64,000 bases of DNA, from the NCBI GenBank assembly GCA_951813565.1, contig OX638351.1:1888001-1952000 (forward strand), written 5' to 3'. The stretch is from an uncultured Poribacteria bacterium (lineage in GTDB: Bacteria > Poribacteria > WGA-4E > WGA-3G). The notes beneath the pieces were generated by a model that was not told the origin of the DNA, made no database searches, and saw nothing but the letters and a program-made list of their open reading frames with translations. Shown here one piece after another: positions 54,589 to 64,000 of this stretch (its first letter is position 1; each line of letters starts with the position of its first letter). The position numbers and the translations under genes were made by a program.

Positions 54589-57435
54589 CTACCAATCCGA
54601 ACCCTTGAGGGCTTCATCCCAATCCCACAAAAGAATTGTGCCATCTTGCCCCGTGCTGACGAGTGTCTTGCCATCAGGTGAGAATACCAGCGTCTCTACT
54701 GGTGCTGAATGCCCATCAAGTATAGTGAGTTTGTCCCCAGATTCAACATCCCATAACTCAATTCCACCGTTTCTAAGACCAGCAATAAGCAAAGAACTAT
54801 CTGGTGAAAATACTAATGATTTGGCACCATTGGAAACTTCCTTAAGACATTCCATTTTATTAGTGCTCATTATGTGGATTCGTTTACGACTTGCCACGGC
54901 AAGCAAGGCACCATTTGAAGAAAATGATAAAGCTTCAATCTCAGAATTCTGTTCAGTAAACAAAGTTAACACAACTCCAGTTTCTACATTAGACATCTGA
55001 ACTTTTCCTTCCTTAGTTCCACTAACAAGTTTCTTACCGTCTGATGAAAATATCAAAACATCTACATCTATTTTCTTGTCTGAGAGAGGAATATCAAAGA
55101 AAGAGCCAATTTCCGTATTCCATATGCGAATTTTTTTAGTGAAACTTGCTCCGATCGCAACCTTTTTTCCATCAGGTGAAAAAGACATAACTGAAGGAAT
55201 GCCTTCACCTGGATTCTCCAAACGTATCAACTCGCGCCCTGTGCGGGTACCAATCAAACGAATTAGTCCATCTAACACTGACACCGTATGCATTGCGCCA
55301 AATCCTGGATCGAAAATTATATCACTATCTGCACCAATGCTGACAAGTTTCATTCCATCAGGTGAAAACGCTAAAGTCTGTAACGAATCCCGATGTCCTG
55401 TAATTTTGAGAGAACTTTTTTGAGACGTTTTTATATCCCAAAAGGTCATTATGCCATTAAGTGCAACACTCGCAAGCGTGGAACTGTCCTTAATGAAAGC
55501 CACTGCTTTAACCCACTCCGTATGTCCAGTGATGTGAGTTGGAAGAAGAGATCCAGTTTTTATATGCCAGAACTTAATAGTACCATCTGTACTCCCACTG
55601 ACGAGGGTGCCACCTTCTGGTGAAAAAGTTAAGGCAGCGATACCGTTAATATGTCCGGTGAGTGTCGCCAACAATTCTCCCGTGATAGTATTCCACAGTC
55701 GTACTGTCTTATCAGTGCTTCCGCTTGCGAGCATTCTTCCATCATGTGAAAATGCCAATGTAGTTATCCAATCTGTATGTTTCCGAAGGATAAACAGTCC
55801 ATGATTCTTAGAGGTATTCCATAATCGTACTGTTTTATCCTGACTCCCGCTTGCGAGCATCGTGCCATCAGGTGAAAATGCTAAGGCGAAAACGTGTTCT
55901 CCCGAATGTCCTTTGAGAGTAGATAATTTTTGCCTGATTGTCGTGTCCCATATCTCAATCTTCCCGTCTCTCATTCCAATTGCAAATAAATCTTGTGTAA
56001 GCGCGTATGGTTCCTTGCCGTACTTTTTCTTATGCTTCTTCCATCGTCCTTTAATCTTCTCTATATTCCTCTTCTTGGTCTCAATATCTAACCTGCCAAT
56101 TTCGTCGCCTGAGTTCCCCAAACTGATAAGCGTTTTGCCATCTTTAGAGAAACGTAATTCTGAAGCAGGATACAGCAAACCAGTGAGTGCAACTTTTCTA
56201 CCAGTCGCTACTTCCCACAACTGGAGTCTCTTCCCACGGAACCTACCACCTATCCCAAGCTTATCCCCTCCACTGGCAAGAAAACGTCCATCTGGGGAAA
56301 ATGCCAGGGATTGACACGCACCAGGGAACATGGATATTTCTTCGCCTGTTTTCGCATCGTAAAGCCACACACCGATATTACTACCTACCGCGAGTTGTGT
56401 GCCGTCAGGTGAAAACTGCATCGCATTAATTCCACCTTTCCCTAAACGCGCTTTCGCCTCTTTCGGTAATTCCCATTTTGTCCAATCTTCCGCTATTTCG
56501 TTAGTTTGCGCCTCTGCAATTGCTGCAGGAGCATCATTAGGTTGCTGTTCAGGGTTATCGCGTTTATCCAGTGCATCAACATTTCCGATTTGTGTCCGCA
56601 CATTTGGCTTAGATTCCAAGTTCGCGACTATTGGAGCGTCAACGATCTCAATCGACATCTCTGTGGTGGCATCTAAACTATAAGGTTGCTGAAAACGAGC
56701 TAAGTATTGATGGTTTCCAAAACCAAGCATCAACAACACCACTACCAACGTTGAAGCAGCAATTGCCCATGGCACTAACGGTTTACTGCCGACTGGTGTA
56801 GCGGGTTTGGTCCGCGAAATCTCTTGCATGATGTTTTCTGTCAGATTTGGAGTGATTTTGAAATTGTCTAAAGCCTCTCTTATCATCGTTTCCTCCTTCT
56901 GTAAACGCTGCTGTGCGCGGCGCAGACGACTCTTAACCGTATTTGCCGATACACCTAAAAACGCACCTATTTCTGTACACGACATCTCTCCGAAGTAATG
57001 CAAAGTCATGACAGTACGTTCACTTTCTCCCAGCTTCGCAAGTAGTTTTTTGACGACATCGCGTTGTGTTTCTACGGTGATCCGTTCGTTTTCCTCAAGC
57101 ACATGCTCAGAATAAGTCGCTTTTTCGGGTTGTGCAACGTCCTTGTCCTCCAACAAATGTTTACGCAAATGTTTCTTACGTAACCATGTGCTGCAGCGGT
57201 TTGTAGCAATCACATAAAGCCAACTTGCGAAACGCTGCGGTTTCTTAAGCTCGCCTAATTTCTGATACGCTTTCAGAAACGTATCCTGTGTAATCTCTTC
57301 GGCTGTGTGAAAATCTCCGATTTTCCGCCACACAAGCGCATGAACCTGTTTTTGATATTTTTCCACAAGTTCTGCAAAGGCGGTATCATCGCCATCAAGA
57401 GTCCGGTGGATTAATTGCACATCGTTGTTTTTCAT
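54589..57435 (-). CDS. ECF sigma-70 factor fused through a TM segment to WD40 repeats
   Basis: Region 2 AEEITQDTFLKAY..FASWLY, region 4 EIGAFLGVSANTVKSRLRRA, hydrophobic WAIAASTLVVVLLMLG, many FSPDG..LASGS.D..W repeats. Confidence 0.92.
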   Translation of the reverse strand: MKNNDVQLIHRTLDGDDTAFAELVEKYQKQVHALVWRKIGDFHTAEEITQDTFLKAYQKLGELKKPQRFASWLYVIATNRCSTWLRKKHLRKHLLEDKDVAQPEKATYSEHVLEENERITVETQRDVVKKLLAKLGESERTVMTLHYFGEMSCTEIGAFLGVSANTVKSRLRRAQQRLQKEETMIREALDNFKITPNLTENIMQEISRTKPATPVGSKPLVPWAIAASTLVVVLLMLGFGNHQYLARFQQPYSLDATTEMSIEIVDAPIVANLESKPNVRTQIGNVDALDKRDNPEQQPNDAPAAIAEAQTNEIAEDWTKWELPKEAKARLGKGGINAMQFSPDGTQLAVGSNIGVWLYDAKTGEEISMFPGACQSLAFSPDGRFLASGGDKLGIGGRFRGKRLQLWEVATGRKVALTGLLYPASELRFSKDGKTLISLGNSGDEIGRLDIETKKRNIEKIKGRWKKHKKKYGKEPYALTQDLFAIGMRDGKIEIWDTTIRQKLSTLKGHSGEHVFALAFSPDGTMLASGSQDKTVRLWNTSKNHGLFILRKHTDWITTLAFSHDGRMLASGSTDKTVRLWNTITGELLATLTGHINGIAALTFSPEGGTLVSGSTDGTIKFWHIKTGSLLPTHITGHTEWVKAVAFIKDSSTLASVALNGIMTFWDIKTSQKSSLKITGHRDSLQTLAFSPDGMKLVSIGADSDIIFDPGFGAMHTVSVLDGLIRLIGTRTGRELIRLENPGEGIPSVMSFSPDGKKVAIGASFTKKIRIWNTEIGSFFDIPLSDKKIDVDVLIFSSDGKKLVSGTKEGKVQMSNVETGVVLTLFTEQNSEIEALSFSSNGALLAVASRKRIHIMSTNKMECLKEVSNGAKSLVFSPDSSLLIAGLRNGGIELWDVESGDKLTILDGHSAPVETLVFSPDGKTLVSTGQDGTILLWDWDEALKGSDW

Positions 57436-58332: not shown

Positions 58333-58368
58333 GATTGAGATTTTTTCTCCAATTCGCATCTATAATTG

Positions 58369-58781
58369 GTAGGTTGGGCAGAGCGAAACCCAAATCAACG
58401 CTATGAATGCGCTTGTGGCATTCAGCCAAATCAACGCAGCGTGCGCGTGGCACGCTGCGGGTGTCAATTTAAGCATGAATCCCTGTTCACATCGTAGGGC
58501 CAAATCAACGCCAAATGCGCTTTTTGGCATTTGTCGGGTCCCTGTGCCCCGCCATGTGTCTGGATTATGTTAAGCAACGGGCGGGCACAGGGACCCGCCC
58601 CTACAAGAGGTGGCCATTTGGAGGAAATCGCGCTTACAAAGCGCTCCCACAAGAGAAATTCAGCAAATTTTTCTTAAGTTGACAGTTAATAGGCAGAACC
58701 CAACAAATTTCAAAAGAGGCGCAATGAATTGCGCGACTACAAACGCGGTACTTCCCAAGATGCACTTGTAAGCGCGCCTAC
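58369..58781. repeat. Composite cluster of REPs, AATCAA mini-hairpins and a MITE (TIR TGTCAAYTTAAG, 58462-58684)
   Basis: Three CAAATCAACGC units, an inverted REP pair and a GAGGCGCAATGAATTGCGC copy. Confidence 0.8.
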
Positions 58782-58798
58782 CAGCGAGAGCATGTATT

Positions 58799-59362
58799 TT
58801 ACAGAGCCAAAAAGTTGCCTAACAAACTCTTTCCAGCAGCTGTCAAAATAGATTCCGGATGAAACTGTACACCCCATACAGGTAAAGTCTTATGTCGAAG
58901 CCCCATGATTTCATCCTGATCTGTCCATGCCGTGATTTCAAGGCAATCTGGCAGTGTTTCTTTTTTTACAATCAGCGAATGGTAGCGCGTCGCTTCAAAT
59001 GGATTATCCAAACCCTCAAAAAGTTCAGCACCATTGTGCAGTATCATTGAGGTTTTACCATGCATCAACCGATCCGCACGGACAACCTCACCACCAAACA
59101 CGTCCCCAATACACTGATGCCCAAGACAGACGCCTAATATCGGCACTTTTCCTGCGAAATGTTCTATCGCATCGTTGGATATGCCTGCTTCTCGCGGTGT
59201 GCAAGGACCGGGTGAAATGACAATCCGCTCCGGTTCCAGCATGTCTAATTCCTCTACCCCTATTTTCCGACTGCGATGCACTTCCAATTCCGCACCGAGT
59301 TCACCAAAATATTGCACAAGATTGTAAGTAAATGAGTCGTAATTGTCAATCATCAAAACCAT
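58799..59362 (-). CDS. trpG: Anthranilate synthase component II (glutamine amidotransferase)
   Basis: [34 protein letters not shown]. Confidence 0.92.
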
Positions 59363-59533
59363 CTTTTGCCTCCTATAATAGCAGAACTTGTTGCCACCTA
59401 TGTAGCACAACTTTAGTTTGTGCATATTAGGACGCAAACTGAAAGTTTGCGCTACGATATTTCACGAATAATGAACTGTTCTCTATTAAAAATGGCGTCT
59501 GTGCGTCTAAAATCTTATAGATAGCAACTTAGG

Positions 59534-61036
59534 TTATAATAGCAGCCCTTGTTGCGCCATTTCAATAGCAGTGAGCATTGCCCATGCCTTACTGACGGTT
59601 TCATAATACTCATTTTCAGGCACTGAATCAGCAACGACACCGCCGCCCGCTTGCACATAGGCAACACCATCTTTGATAACCGCAGTTCGGATCGTAATCG
59701 CTGTGTCCGCACTACCAGAAAAACTGAAATAGCCAACTGCCCCACCATAAGGACCACGACGTGTCGGTTCCAGTTCGTCAATGATCTCCATTGCGCGTAT
59801 TTTTGGTGCGCCAGAGAGTGTGCCTGCGGGGAGGCATGCCCGAATAACATCAAAAGCGGAAAGATTATCACGCAGTTTTCCAATAACATGCGATACGATG
59901 TGCATCACGTGTGAAAACTTTTCAACTATCATCAGATCGGTTACTTCAACGGTATGGTATTCACACACACGCCCGAGGTCATTTCGCCCTAAATCGACAA
60001 GCATGACATGCTCTGCGCGTTCCTTCGGATCAGCAAGGAGTTCTTGTTCCAATTCAATATCCTCTTCTGTGGTCTTTCCGCGCGGGCGTGTTCCGGCAAT
60101 CGGAACAGTCTGGACAAATCCATCTTCCACACGCACCATCATCTCTGGCGATGCCCCAACAATGTCAAAGCTATCAAATTTTAGGTAATACATATAAGGC
60201 GATGGATTCACCACCCGCAATGCACGATAAATATCGAACGAGTCAACGGATACCGGACGGCTAAACCGCTGTGAAGTTACAACCTGTATGATGTCACCTG
60301 CGGCAATATATTCTTTGGCGCGCCGTACAACGTTTTCGTAAGCAGCCTTTGTGAAATTTGAAGGCGGGTCAGGCACAGTTTCAGCAGGACTACCTGAACG
60401 ATCATCCGTCCTATTTACTAAATGCACTTCAGAAGTAGATGTCAGTTTTCCAACCATTGCGTCAATTTTGCCAACAGCATTGGCGTAAGCAGCATCTAAA
60501 TCCCCATCAATGTGTGCATTTGCCACAACTTTAATTTGATGATTTACATGATCAAAGATCAGAATTGTCTCTGCAATCATAAAAAAGCAATCGGGAAGTT
60601 GCAGTTCATCTTCGGTATCATCTGGCAATTCTTCCACGAAACGTACCATATCGTAACTCATAAAACCGACAGCACCGCCGTGGAACTGTGGTAAACCGTC
60701 AACACTGACAGGTTGATAATTCTGCATTACCTCTTCCAAGGCTTTCAGCGGGTCTTCATACTCCGTAGACACCTTTTCACCTTTTTCCAAATACTCAATG
60801 GTAACCTGATGTCCTTTGCTCTGGAAAAGGACGGACGGTTGGCTCCCCAAAAATGAGTAGCGCGCAACGGTTTCACCACCTTCAACGCTCTCTAATAAAA
60901 ACGCGTAATCATTGGGCATCAATTTGTAGAAGGCGGACACCGGTGTCTCCATATCTGCCAAAATTGGGCGATATACCGGTATCGTGTTGCCTGTTTTCGC
61001 TTTTTCCTTAAATTCCTCCAAAGTCGGATAATACAT
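59534..61036 (-). CDS. trpE: Anthranilate synthase component I
   Basis: FLLES Trp-feedback motif, NPSPYM, PIAGTR, KERAEHVMLVDLGRND, GAPKIRAM. Confidence 0.95.
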   Translation of the reverse strand: MYYPTLEEFKEKAKTGNTIPVYRPILADMETPVSAFYKLMPNDYAFLLESVEGGETVARYSFLGSQPSVLFQSKGHQVTIEYLEKGEKVSTEYEDPLKALEEVMQNYQPVSVDGLPQFHGGAVGFMSYDMVRFVEELPDDTEDELQLPDCFFMIAETILIFDHVNHQIKVVANAHIDGDLDAAYANAVGKIDAMVGKLTSTSEVHLVNRTDDRSGSPAETVPDPPSNFTKAAYENVVRRAKEYIAAGDIIQVVTSQRFSRPVSVDSFDIYRALRVVNPSPYMYYLKFDSFDIVGASPEMMVRVEDGFVQTVPIAGTRPRGKTTEEDIELEQELLADPKERAEHVMLVDLGRNDLGRVCEYHTVEVTDLMIVEKFSHVMHIVSHVIGKLRDNLSAFDVIRACLPAGTLSGAPKIRAMEIIDELEPTRRGPYGGAVGYFSFSGSADTAITIRTAVIKDGVAYVQAGGGVVADSVPENEYYETVSKAWAMLTAIEMAQQGLLL

Positions 61037-61088: not shown

Positions 61089-61181
61089 ATACCAAATTAA
61101 CAGTATTCCACCAATCTATAAGTGCGGTTAGGAAACCGCACCTACCGTCCAAAAATAAGATAAATCGCGTTAATTTGGTAT
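61089..61181. mobile_element. MITE-like element, TIR ATACCAAATTAA...TTAATTTGGTAT, with REP GTGCGGTTAGGAAACCGCACCTAC
   Basis: Same TIR as 3530-3620 but a different internal REP. Confidence 0.65.
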
Positions 61182-61288: not shown

Positions 61289-61669
61289 CTAATAGACAGC
61301 ATCAGCATCAAAAATCTTTTCACCCACCACATTTGTTGACTCACCATCGGAGGAGACTTCCCGAAAGAAGCAGGAGCGATAGCCGGTATGGCACGCTGCC
61401 ACCTTCTGCTCAACCTTTATGAGCAAGGCATCGCCGTCACAATCAACTGCTACAGACTCAACAGTCTGTGTATGCCCTGAAGTCTCCCCCTTTATCCACA
61501 ACTTTTGGCGGGAACGACTCCAGAAGCAGACACGACCAGTCGACAGTGTTTGTTCGATCGCTTCAGCGTTCATATAACCAACCATCAGCACTTCGTTATT
61601 TGTCTGATCCTGAATTACTGCGGCGACCAAACCATCGCTATCATATTTTAGTTCCGATAAAAATTTCAT
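61289..61669 (-). CDS. hisI: Phosphoribosyl-AMP cyclohydrolase
   Basis: [32 protein letters not shown]. Confidence 0.96.
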
Positions 61670-61689
61670 AGTTTCTCCTTCGTCATATT

Positions 61690-61733
61690 AAAAACAAAAA
61701 ACCTTATGCCACTGAGGTTCGTGTGCATAAGGC
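61690..61733 (-). terminator. Attenuator terminator upstream of hisI
   Basis: Minus strand CCTTATGCAC-ACGAACCTCA-GTGGCATAAGG followed by TTTTTTGTTTTT. Confidence 0.85.
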
Positions 61734-61773
61734 TTAATAAGTAACATCAAAAATAAAATAGATCGAATTTTGC

Positions 61774-61869
61774 TTAGCGCGCACACTCCTCTTTAATGGA
61801 ATTGGAACGCCACCAATGCCAATAATTGAATATGCTATGCAAGTTGGAGTGTGAACGGGTATATTTCAT
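61774..61869 (-). CDS. Leader peptide MKYTRSHSNLHSIFNYWHWWRSNSIKEECAR (trpL-like, also His-containing)
   Basis: 31 codons with TGG-CAT-TGG-TGG, between a promoter and a terminator, upstream of hisI-trpE-trpG. Confidence 0.85.
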   Translation of the reverse strand: MKYTRSHSNLHSIFNYWHWWRSNSIKEECAR

Positions 61870-61925
61870 TTTTTAGGTCTTCGTAGTCAAAGTTCTCTTA
61901 CATATCATTTACAGCGATTTTTAAT

Positions 61926-61954
61926 ATAATACCACATTTAGATTCTATATGCAA
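61926..61954 (-). promoter_or_regulatory. Sigma70-type promoter for the leader-hisI-trpE-trpG unit
   Basis: TTGCAT-17-TATTAT with an extended -10 TG. Confidence 0.65.
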
Positions 61955-61972
61955 ATAAATTTAGAATTTTCT

Positions 61973-62086
61973 TATAGTGAAATGCATAATTATCTTGATA
62001 TTGGCGAGGTTAGGAAACCTCGCCAGCGCGAGTGTGTGGGAATTGTTATTCATTGAAATGTGAACATATTTTCGGATTTTACTATA
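61973..62086. mobile_element. TATAGT-family MITE carrying REP GCGAGGTTAGGAAACCTCGC
   Basis: TATAGTGAAAT...GATTTTACTATA ends. Confidence 0.7.
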
Positions 62087-62099
62087 AACCCATTTAGCT

Positions 62100-62765
62100 T
62101 CAGTTATTGACGAACTTCCTCATGGGCATTTCCCCATCCCATTCCAACGGACGGTTCTCTAAATACGGACGCAGCAGCTCTCGAAGACGTCGATGCGCAT
62201 GATGCAAGTGTGTTTTGACCGTTCCTTCTGATCGATCTATGAGGACCGCAATCTCTTTAATCTGAAGTTTCTGATCATACCGCAATCTGAAAACACGTCG
62301 CTGTTTCGGAGCAAGTTGATTTACCGCCTTGCCAATAATGTCTCCGAGTTCCTCCATCTCAATTAGATGAGATGGAGATGGATACTTGCTAATCAGCATC
62401 AACTCCTCCGGACCTCCCGTTAATTCTTCAAATGCAACAGTTTTCCTCCTGCTCTGTTGCCGTAAAAAATCAATACAGCAATTCATGGCGATGCGGTAAA
62501 GCCAACTATAAAAAGCAGATTCACGTTTAAATTCCGGTAACGCCTTAAAGGCTTTCAAGAACACTTCTTGACAGAGGTCTTTTGTCGTTTCAGCGTCGTT
62601 AATATGTCTGTAAATAAGTTTTGCAATGCGGGTCTGATATTTCAGTACGAGTGTGTTAAAAGCACCTATATCACCGTTTTGGAATCGGGTTACTAACTCA
62701 TGTTCATCAATTAATTCTAATTCATCGGCAGATGGCAAATCTAAATGTCTTTTTGTGTCTGGCAT
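62100..62765 (-). CDS. ECF sigma factor (RpoE/SigW-like)
   Basis: DLCQEVFLKAF..FYSWLYRIAMN, EIAVLIDRSEGTVKTHLHHA; no anti-sigma gene downstream. Confidence 0.9.
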   Translation of the reverse strand: MPDTKRHLDLPSADELELIDEHELVTRFQNGDIGAFNTLVLKYQTRIAKLIYRHINDAETTKDLCQEVFLKAFKALPEFKRESAFYSWLYRIAMNCCIDFLRQQSRRKTVAFEELTGGPEELMLISKYPSPSHLIEMEELGDIIGKAVNQLAPKQRRVFRLRYDQKLQIKEIAVLIDRSEGTVKTHLHHAHRRLRELLRPYLENRPLEWDGEMPMRKFVNN

Positions 62766-62914: not shown

Positions 62915-63205
62915 ATGGCGAAACGAAAACGAAGAAACTTCACTCCCGAGTTTAAAGCCGAAGTTGTTCTTGAGGCACTGAGCGGTCAAAGTTCCCAAGC
63001 AGAAGTGTGTCGGCGACATAGCCTCAGCGATGAACAACTTTCAAAGTGGAAGCGACAGCTTCTTGAAAATGCGGCGACCCTCTTTGAACCCGCTGATAAA
63101 CAGTCTGATGCCTCTGCGGATCGGATCGCCCAACTTGAGCAACTCGTTGGGCGGTTGACCCTGGCACTTGACATCCAAAAAAAAGCCTCAACTTACTTGA
63201 GTTGA
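62915..63205 (+). CDS. IS3 transposase OrfA
   Basis: RRNFTPEFKAEVV..AEVCRRH..LSKWK. Confidence 0.9.
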   Translation: MAKRKRRNFTPEFKAEVVLEALSGQSSQAEVCRRHSLSDEQLSKWKRQLLENAATLFEPADKQSDASADRIAQLEQLVGRLTLALDIQKKASTYLS

Positions 63206-63210
63206 CCCCG

Positions 63211-64000
63211 ATGGAGCAGCGAGAAATGGTTGAAGCATTACGGATAGACTTTTCGGTTCGGCAGATATGTGAGACGCTCGGTTTCAACCGAAGCAATCTC
63301 TATTATCACCCCAAGCAGGACCCGTGTGAAGCGGGCCTCCGGGATGAAATAGAGAAGTTATCTTTGCTATATCCAACATACGGATATAGACGTATCACAC
63401 AGTTGTTAGTGCGTGGCGGATACACCATCGGGTATAAGCGTGTTGCCCGATTGATGAAATCCGCCAACCTCTCGGTTTCTGTCAAACGTGTCTGTCAAAC
63501 CACGACATCCGTTGCGGGTGTGCGTCCCTGGGGTAATCGCCTTGAAAACCTTGATGTCTCCCGATGTGATCAGGTCTGGGTAGGCGATATTACCTACGTC
63601 CGTCTCAAAGGACACTTCATCTATGTTTGTCTGCTCATGGATGTCTTCACTCGCATGATCAGGGGGTGGCATATCAGTCGACACTTGACGCAATCTCTGG
63701 CGTTGAAACCCTTAGAGACAGCATTATGTCAAAGTGTTCCAGAGATCCATCATTCTGATCAAGGCGTTCAGTATCTTTCAGATGCGTATATCTCACTGCT
63801 TAGGTATCATGGGATAGAGATTTCAGTCGCCCGAAGAGGGTGTCCTTGGGAGAACGGATATGCTGAAAGACTTATCCGCACGCTCAAGGAAGAAGAAGTT
63901 CATCTCAACGCCTATGAGGACATCCACGAAGCGAGAGCCCGCATTGGGCATTTTATTACGCAAGTGTATAATCACAAACGCCCTCATTCAGCGTTAGGGT
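63211..64000 (+). CDS. IS3 transposase OrfB (-1 frame, truncated by the window edge)
   Basis: YGYRRI, WVGDITY, HHSDQGVQY, WENGYAER..TLKEE, YNHKRPHSALG. Confidence 0.9.
   Translation, partial: MEQREMVEALRIDFSVRQICETLGFNRSNLYYHPKQDPCEAGLRDEIEKLSLLYPTYGYRRITQLLVRGGYTIGYKRVARLMKSANLSVSVKRVCQTTTSVAGVRPWGNRLENLDVSRCDQVWVGDITYVRLKGHFIYVCLLMDVFTRMIRGWHISRHLTQSLALKPLETALCQSVPEIHHSDQGVQYLSDAYISLLRYHGIEISVARRGCPWENGYAERLIRTLKEEEVHLNAYEDIHEARARIGHFITQVYNHKRPHSALG

Follow-up and report, generated by a model that had tools for sequence, protein, structure and literature searches.

A predicted His- and Trp-responsive attenuator upstream of hisI-trpE-trpG in the sponge-symbiont phylum Poribacteria

In enterobacterial hisL, the His codons of a leader ORF control his genes. 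In the leaders of thrL (Thr and Ile) and of ilvGMEDA/ilvBN (Leu, Ile, and Val), codons for several amino acids are interleaved, which gives an OR response; in all mixed-codon leaders known to us, the amino acids belong to a single branched pathway. His and trp genes are linked in the aro-trp-his supraoperon of B. subtilis and in actinobacterial his-trp clusters with PriA, and we know of no mixed-codon leader for either. In the trp attenuators of E. coli (trpL), Corynebacterium, and Streptomyces, an ORF with two or three UGG codons stands before trpE, and an antiterminator and a U-tailed terminator are mutually exclusive. The Poribacteria leader described here resembles each of these systems in part: it has the build of a trp attenuator, its His codons would control a his gene as in hisL and in the hisZ/hisS leaders of bacilli, its codons for two amino acids are interleaved as in thrL and ilv, and the his and trp genes behind it are physically linked.

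Published work covers Trp attenuators in Actinobacteria, including the Corynebacterium and Streptomyces trp leaders (PMC1262725), the theory of attenuation sensitivity (PMC1183508), His leaders before hisZ and hisS paralogs in bacilli (PMC2965389), and leader genes (PMC4833913). The examined text of these four papers contains no leader combining His and Trp. Full-text searches of open-access papers found no report of one, although a comparable leader may be among those in the large attenuation surveys Vitreschak 2004 and Lopatovskaya 2010.

The hisI-trpE-trpG locus and its leader

The window is a stretch of 64,000 nt from an uncultured Poribacteria bacterium (contig OX638351.1 of assembly GCA_951813565.1, hereafter the source genome). 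Its positions are used for the following parts of the locus, given in order of transcription.

61926..61955, minus strand: promoter-like site of sigma-70 type (TTTGCA, 18 nt, TG-n-TATTAT), predicted by sequence scan
61774..61869, minus strand: leader ORF of 31 codons, MKYTRSHSNLHSIFNYWHWWRSNSIKEECAR, from the ORF call, presumably translated
61846..61853, minus strand: segment 1, CACACTCC, codons 6-8 with His7, from folding
61810..61821, minus strand: control codons Trp17-His18-Trp19-Trp20, from sequence and conservation
61781..61791, minus strand: segment 2, GAGG-A-GTGTGC, predicted 5' strand of the antiterminator, from folding and conserved pairing
61714..61733, minus strand: segment 3, terminator 5' arm and loop, with GCACAC and CCTC as antiterminator partners, from folding
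61690..61712, minus strand: segment 4, terminator 3' arm and U-tract, from folding and sequence, with the 3' end expected at about 61695-61693
61675..61680, minus strand: ribosome-binding site of hisI, AAGGAG, from sequence
61289..61669, minus strand: hisI, phosphoribosyl-AMP cyclohydrolase, 126 aa (NCBIfam PRK00051, 175 bits, cut-off 126)
59534..61036, minus strand: trpE, anthranilate synthase component I, 500 aa (TIGR00564, 589 bits, cut-off 518)
58799..59359, minus strand: trpG, anthranilate synthase component II, 186 aa (TIGR00566, 272 bits, cut-off 121)

An earlier sequence-only reading had named the promoter, the 31-aa ORF, the terminator with its U-tract, the ribosome-binding site, and the three genes, and each was recovered, the genes all scoring above their NCBIfam cut-offs. 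His occupies codons 7, 11, and 18 of the leader and Trp codons 17, 19, and 20, which leaves a single His in the core of the source genome. Segment 2 ends 5 nt before the leader stop codon. The terminator, GCCTTATGC-A-CAC / GTG-GCATAAGGT (61733..61701, -17.5 kcal/mol), is followed by a T6-G-T5 tail that runs to 61690; a simple terminator scan did not pick up this hairpin because of its bulge. The leader ATG of the source genome has a weak Shine-Dalgarno sequence. Sites of the TTTGCA-18-TATTAT type number 3 in the 1.8-kb region against 5.4 in shuffles, and taken alone the promoter-like site is at chance level. The window holds the only strong hisI match of the source genome, and this HisI is the short monofunctional form. 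Canonical hisE was not found in the source genome (95% complete), where two weak MazG-like PF01503 matches scored 28 and 22 bits. The gap between hisI and trpE measures 252 nt; a search for internal promoters between hisI and trpE gave a 9/12 site in two of 56 gaps of family f1 and none in the source genome. An ATP-pyrophosphatase-like gene after trpG was considered as an operon member or HisE substitute and rejected, being absent within 1.5 kb after trpE at 26/26 other loci. In six deeper loci, a TrpD-like start, identified by likeness to TrpD of the source genome, follows trpG.

REP-like palindromes and larger repeats fill intergenic gaps of the window (62000-62040, 61120-61150, 59380-59530, and 58340-58790), and in some relatives (L003, L007, and L012) related repeat elements separate the terminator from hisI. 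An ECF sigma factor gene (62100-62765, minus strand) stands directly upstream of the leader promoter in many loci of genus g1, and a second ECF sigma factor, at 54589-57435 (minus strand), is fused to WD40-like repeats. Two overlapping ORFs at 62915-63999 (plus strand) look, by eye, like an IS3-type transposase pair.

Conservation of the leader and its predicted RNA switch

The leader and the hisI-trpE arrangement are real and conserved over most of the sponge-symbiont phylum Poribacteria. hisI was matched in 101/101 relatives and in 171 of the 176 genomes of the phylum, and the DNA upstream of it was read in 170 of these 171, leaving out G129, in which hisI lies at a contig start. In the first set of loci, trpE follows hisI on the same strand in 98/103, the two genes lying 12-698 nt apart (∼20 nt in genus g11), and trpG lies no more than 1.5 kb beyond trpE in 26 of 27 loci. 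Upstream of hisI, the W-x-W-W core is intact at 89/103 first-set loci (families f1, f2, and f3) and at 50/52 further loci, mostly of genus g5, which are short stretches upstream of hisI and were used for the leader core, not for trpE adjacency. This makes 139/155 loci in families f1-f4, with x being His in 136/139. The two further loci lacking an intact core have an insertion within it. The motif for the alignment of the first 89 demanded His or Tyr at the centre, and the 14 misses were inspected one by one, with no other W-x-W-W found before hisI among them; four are divergent hisI copies away from trpE, four have a decayed leader but still the terminator, four have no leader, one lies on a truncated contig, and one has an insertion that breaks the leader. 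hisI-trpE is retained without a leader in genus f1g2 (three genomes), G072, and G105. Sixteen more distant loci, two basal loci with separate trpE aside, yielded 14 leaders with Trp and one to five His; one of the other two has no leader and one is truncated.

Sequence features of translation are conserved as well. An in-frame ATG lies 12-19 codons upstream of the first Trp in 88/89 leaders and exactly 16 codons upstream in 68/89, indels 5' of the core come in multiples of three and keep the frame, and the stop codon sits just beyond segment 2 in nearly all leaders. Clear AAGG-type Shine-Dalgarno sites are present in family f3. A promoter-like site matching at least 9/12 positions lies upstream of 78/89 orthologous leaders, compared with 0/89 control windows inside hisI. 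Residues outside the four-codon core are wholly different between families, and the leader tail is frameshifted in genus g5. Among individual leaders, L065, L272, and L294 are broken by short hairpin-like insertions inside the Trp/His core, L073 has its leader tail and terminator tandemly duplicated, and the hisI-first leaders L115, L118, and L091 have three His but one Trp, as if drifting to His-dominant sensing.

A terminator hairpin with U-tract is found in 89/89 leaders (predicted -12.4 to -22.5 kcal/mol), its sequence being wholly different in f1 versus f2/f3. The antiterminator, formed by a 7-mer near the leader end and the top of the terminator 5' arm, reaches at least 6/7 pairs in 89/89, and its two strands switch jointly between families, from GTGTGCG/TGCACAC to GTRTGCC/GGCATAC. 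The ORF, start, core codons, antiterminator, and terminator are thus kept across three families whose terminators differ, as expected of the ribosome-mediated attenuator proposed from the letters. Within groups, the stem covariation that had been suggested as a check was not above shuffles, for segments 1 and 2 within f1 or for the terminator (0 two-sided changes), and cognate antiterminator duplexes were no better than permuted ones in 4/4 groups, with column counts weakened by register shifts of segment 2. Segments 1 and 2 are paired in 88.5% of cells in 24 leaders of family f1. Rfam gave nothing at gathering level: Trp_leader (RF00513) scored 16.9 bits against 41 (E 2.5), and none of the nine matches at E up to 10 was a His leader, T-box, or riboswitch family.

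As assessed by nascent-transcript folds (transcript to the terminator 3' arm, after removal of all RNA as far as 13 nt beyond the A-site codon), the antiterminator probability by group, over the 89 leaders, is 0.80-1.00 with the ribosome at the core, falls at +8 to +10, and is 0.00 at the stop codon. Values for the source genome are 0.85 at the core, 0.00 at the stop, and 0.01 when untranslated, and untranslated leaders are partly open in several groups (mean 0.33-0.85). Folding with ribosome-masked segments, a check suggested by the sequence-only reading, thus predicts read-through for a core stall and termination for a ribosome at the stop codon. The pairing proposed in that reading of CACACTCC (61853..61846) with GGAGTGTG (61789..61782) is present in the fold of the whole leader, which has a folding z-score of -1.93. 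Its antiterminator stands in part: GAGG/CCTC and GTGTGC/GCACAC form in the nascent transcript, but TAAG/CTTA is not predicted, and the G of TAAG is not conserved. The read-through model assumes that the ribosome blocks pairing around itself. When upstream RNA is allowed to pair across the ribosome, a stall at His18 brings the antiterminator to about 0 in 6/13 leaders, the source genome included, and in the source genome stalls at His7 or His11 still antiterminate (0.80 and 0.84). Full-length equilibrium folds with ribosome masks gave the terminator at 0.999 for every mask and are uninformative.

Taken together, it is probable that the leader is a ribosome-mediated attenuator that opens hisI-trpE-trpG on shortage of charged Trp-tRNA or His-tRNA, which would make it an OR gate. 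A shortage of either tRNA would stall the ribosome at codons 17-20, and segment 2 would then pair with the terminator 5' arm and loop, giving read-through. A ribosome reaching the stop codon, 5 nt past segment 2, would cover segment 2 and let the terminator form, and when no ribosome is present segment 1 would hold segment 2, at least in the source genome. The switch mechanism would be a textbook one; the two-pathway His/Trp input would be unusual and is backed comparatively.

The central His codon and the history of the operon

Among the 139 intact cores, the central codon is CAT in 131, CAC in five, Tyr in two, and Arg in one. His is central in 88/89 leaders of the first set (CAT in 85/89) and in 48/50 out-of-sample cores, in which the first Trp is kept in 47/50, i.e. 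His at the centre is equally fixed. By parsimony on the TrpE tree with 88 leaders, there is one amino acid change at the His codon (and three synonymous ones) and 0, 1, and 1 at the Trp codons, compared with 7-31 at each of 18 other codons. The alignment comparison of His and Trp codons, called for by the sequence-only reading, thus finds a central His that changes as rarely as the Trp codons. Overall, His makes up 337/2803 codons (12%) in the 89 leaders, against 2.3% genome-wide, and 55/518 codons in 18 more distant hisI-first leaders. Counter-cases among hisI-first leaders are G117, G119, and G104, with Cys, Tyr, and Pro at the centre and 4, 3, and 1 His nearby, and G061, in which His is absent and the Trp run has decayed.

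The other His codons behave differently. His at -10, -6, and -1 relative to the core exchanges with Asn, Asp, Tyr, or others, and these upstream codons look at least partly structural. The codons at -6 and -1 (11 and 16 in the source genome; 61837-61839 and 61822-61824) alternate mostly between CAT, AAT, GAT, and TAT. The amino acids of these codons are the four read by queuosine tRNAs, but pairing of the last two bases offers the simpler reason for the alternation.

Gene context gives the most telling test of selected His sensing. Leaders of the same build also occur directly before trpE, without hisI, in G102 and G103 (other classes), in L229 (a metagenome contig), and in genus g9 (G063, G081, and G066). 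The four intact ones (G102, G103, G063, and L229) have 0 His in 122 codons, 4/4, with Arg or Cys at the centre, and two degenerate g9 leaders have one His each, at the position after the core. In the TrpE tree (rooted on G101 by taxonomy; 118/119 rows, L015 dropped since its contig lacks trpE), G102, G103, and L229 fall outside all hisI-first lineages, and g9 is nested inside them (support 0.985). The nested lineage shares segment 2 with its hisI-first relatives and lost its His codons; the basal His-free leaders have a one-base difference in segment 2. His codons thus appear to come with hisI and go with hisI, as two independent events and not 139; the 139 intact cores are close kin. Dual His/Trp sensing is supported by a central His that is invariant before hisI and absent from homologous leaders without it.

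Because His is absent without hisI in both basal and nested lineages, a Trp attenuator probably came first, took in hisI, and acquired its His codons afterwards. The sequence-only reading had offered a plain trp attenuator that captured hisI as the alternative to dual sensing, but the two are compatible, and the tree suggests capture followed by His gain. In this history, hisI would have been inserted between an ancestral Trp-only attenuator and trpE, His codons would have been selected that keep the sole hisI on when Trp is plentiful and His short, and they would have decayed again where hisI left the operon. The motive is likely the repair of the capture, without which plentiful Trp would silence the only copy of hisI. 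Needless TrpEG would be cheap because Trp inhibits anthranilate synthase. The proposal that the leader integrates two PRPP-consuming pathways is unsupported: neither PRPP-using enzyme is in the hisI-trpE-trpG operon of the source genome, in which hisG lies at C1:504.8 kb under its own His leader and trpD at C1:3776 kb, and PRPP sharing is not needed for the motive. In L103 (G063:C309, 593-2405), the divergent g9 hisI stands beside two GTPase genes that we take to belong to the family labelled COG0523-like, which suggests that a zinc-limitation hisI paralog replaced the operon copy in genus g9.

His/Trp-rich intergenic short ORFs number 14 genome-wide, and only two precede a matching biosynthetic gene: the hisI-trpE-trpG leader and a His-only leader before hisZ-hisG-hisS (named from PF01634, the rest by eye). 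The latter (G000:C1:502871-502912, plus strand) is Trp-free, lies 218 nt before these genes, and is conserved in 14/14 f1 loci fetched (L208-L221), with CAT in 38/45 of its His codons, the same bias as in the hisI leader. It has three or four consecutive His plus one, and a terminator-like tail downstream. Its conservation makes His-codon attenuation plausible in family f1; outside f1, no His leader was found before hisG in 6/6 loci, which lack hisZ there. Scans of 500 nt upstream of trpB, trpA, trpD, hisA, hisF, hisD, and hisB in the source genome found no leader, and these other his and trp genes are scattered.

We followed the hairpin scaffold beyond Poribacteria with a codon-free pattern (56 genome and 28 metagenome stretches), identifying downstream genes from ten checked proteins and otherwise by likeness. 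Phe/Tyr/Trp runs occur before genes like those for shikimate kinase (L177, L182, L230, L239, and L255), DAHP synthase (L194, L235, and L247), and ADH synthase (L232, L204, and L251), and Trp runs before IorA-like (indolepyruvate ferredoxin oxidoreductase alpha) and TrpB2-like genes (L202 and L236); several matches have no run. The scaffold therefore does not need His. The aromatic-gene leaders, from Desulfobacteraceae/Thermodesulfobacteriota and metagenome contigs, are rich in Tyr, Phe, and Trp and are candidate three-amino-acid attenuators. In Chloroflexota and metagenome contigs (L153, L154, L180, L193, L198, L201, L238, and L249), the ORFs behind the scaffold look, by eye, ABC-type or RNA-methyltransferase-like; the leaders are short and have no aromatic runs, and several carry a second hairpin in tandem. 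These are possibly stall-sensing leaders of another kind.

Alternative explanations and comparison with known systems

The most serious competitor of dual sensing is a Trp-only attenuator that captured hisI and kept His since CAT fits the RNA stems, any His response being an unselected side effect. The central codon does lie inside predicted stems in several groups, its A and T pairing in 20/24 and 24/24 f1 leaders, i.e. the second and third bases of CAT pair in the f1 inner hairpin, and CAT itself is found in 85/89. Positions -6 and -1 likewise hold their last two bases while the first varies. However, the central codon barely varies at its first base, which does not pair in the f1 hairpin, and the codon sits in differing predicted contexts among groups. 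CGT, which the trpE-first leaders use and which pairs equally well, occurs at the centre once in 139 cores (1/50 out-of-sample), whereas the codon following the core toggles freely between CAT (24/89) and CGT (31/89), the pattern expected of a pairing constraint. In silico swaps of the centre to CGT, TAT, CAA, and CAG shift the ensemble energy by less than 1 kcal/mol in four large groups and by 2-4 kcal/mol in group f3g8 (five leaders). The CAT bias is identical in the His-only leader, and distant hisI-first leaders with a changed centre mostly retain a nearby His. The segment 2 base by which the basal His-free leaders differ could mean coupled changes, and the independent gain/loss contrasts number only two, but the nested hisI-less lineage lost its His codons despite an unchanged segment 2. 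On balance we regard retention for stem fit as unlikely, though the one competitor with appreciable weight.

Two other explanations dispense with hungry codons. A nascent peptide could stall the ribosome by sensing a free ligand, either Trp, as TnaC does, or, given that HisI is a zinc enzyme, a metal by way of His residues. The fixed W-H-W-W core, whose spacing from the start hardly varies (Met lies 16 codons before it in 68/89), and the COG0523-like genes beside the divergent g9 hisI would suit such a sensor. A TnaC-type conserved peptide upstream of the stall site was not found, with 7-31 changes per non-core codon; the non-core residues differ completely between families, the g5 tail is frameshifted, and in other phyla the scaffold codons track the amino acid of the downstream gene. 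Moreover, the predicted effect of the stall is to turn biosynthetic genes on, in keeping with a signal of shortage and not of excess, and we consider peptide sensing very improbable. Hardly more credible is an untranslated ORF within a purely structural, protein- or RNA-bound element whose terminator is constitutive or otherwise controlled. The weak Shine-Dalgarno sequence of the source genome, the terminator in every full-length equilibrium fold (0.999), and the modest z-score of -1.93 are in its favour, but the in-frame ATG in 88/89 leaders, indels in threes before the core, clear AAGG-type sites in f3, and a stop codon just past segment 2 in nearly all leaders all speak for translation, and there is no T-box or riboswitch match in Rfam.

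Considering dual sensing by codons as the preferred reading, we lean, by a narrow margin of belief, towards a broader proposal: that this is the first ribosome-stalling attenuator answering two unrelated pathways, a Trp sensor that captured hisI, gained His, and lost His with hisI, and one setting of a wider scaffold, without Rfam match at the hisI locus and with a codon run that different phyla have adjusted to the gene that follows (Trp+His, Trp, or Phe/Tyr/Trp). If true, it would take only a few codon changes to turn an attenuator into an OR gate once an operon has been reshuffled, and the natural gains and losses are ready-made alleles for the speed and precision with which leader codons track gene content. 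The leader would also open direct access to how this uncultured, sponge-associated phylum manages its His and Trp, and synthetic biology would gain a compact part with two inputs.

Compared with trp attenuators, the Poribacteria leader has His fixed inside the Trp run and a his gene first in the operon, segment 1 forms a long-range helix in the family of the source genome, and the stop codon lies 40-50 nt before the terminator; it falls below the cut-off of Trp_leader RF00513 and is not a member. The his leaders have a His run and no Trp, whereas the Poribacteria core interleaves one to four His with Trp. Unlike in the PriA clusters, the hisA-family and trpF-family genes are kept separate in the source genome. 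Finally, thrL and the ilv leaders serve one branched pathway with the same enzymes, whereas His and Trp share no enzyme in hisI-trpE-trpG.
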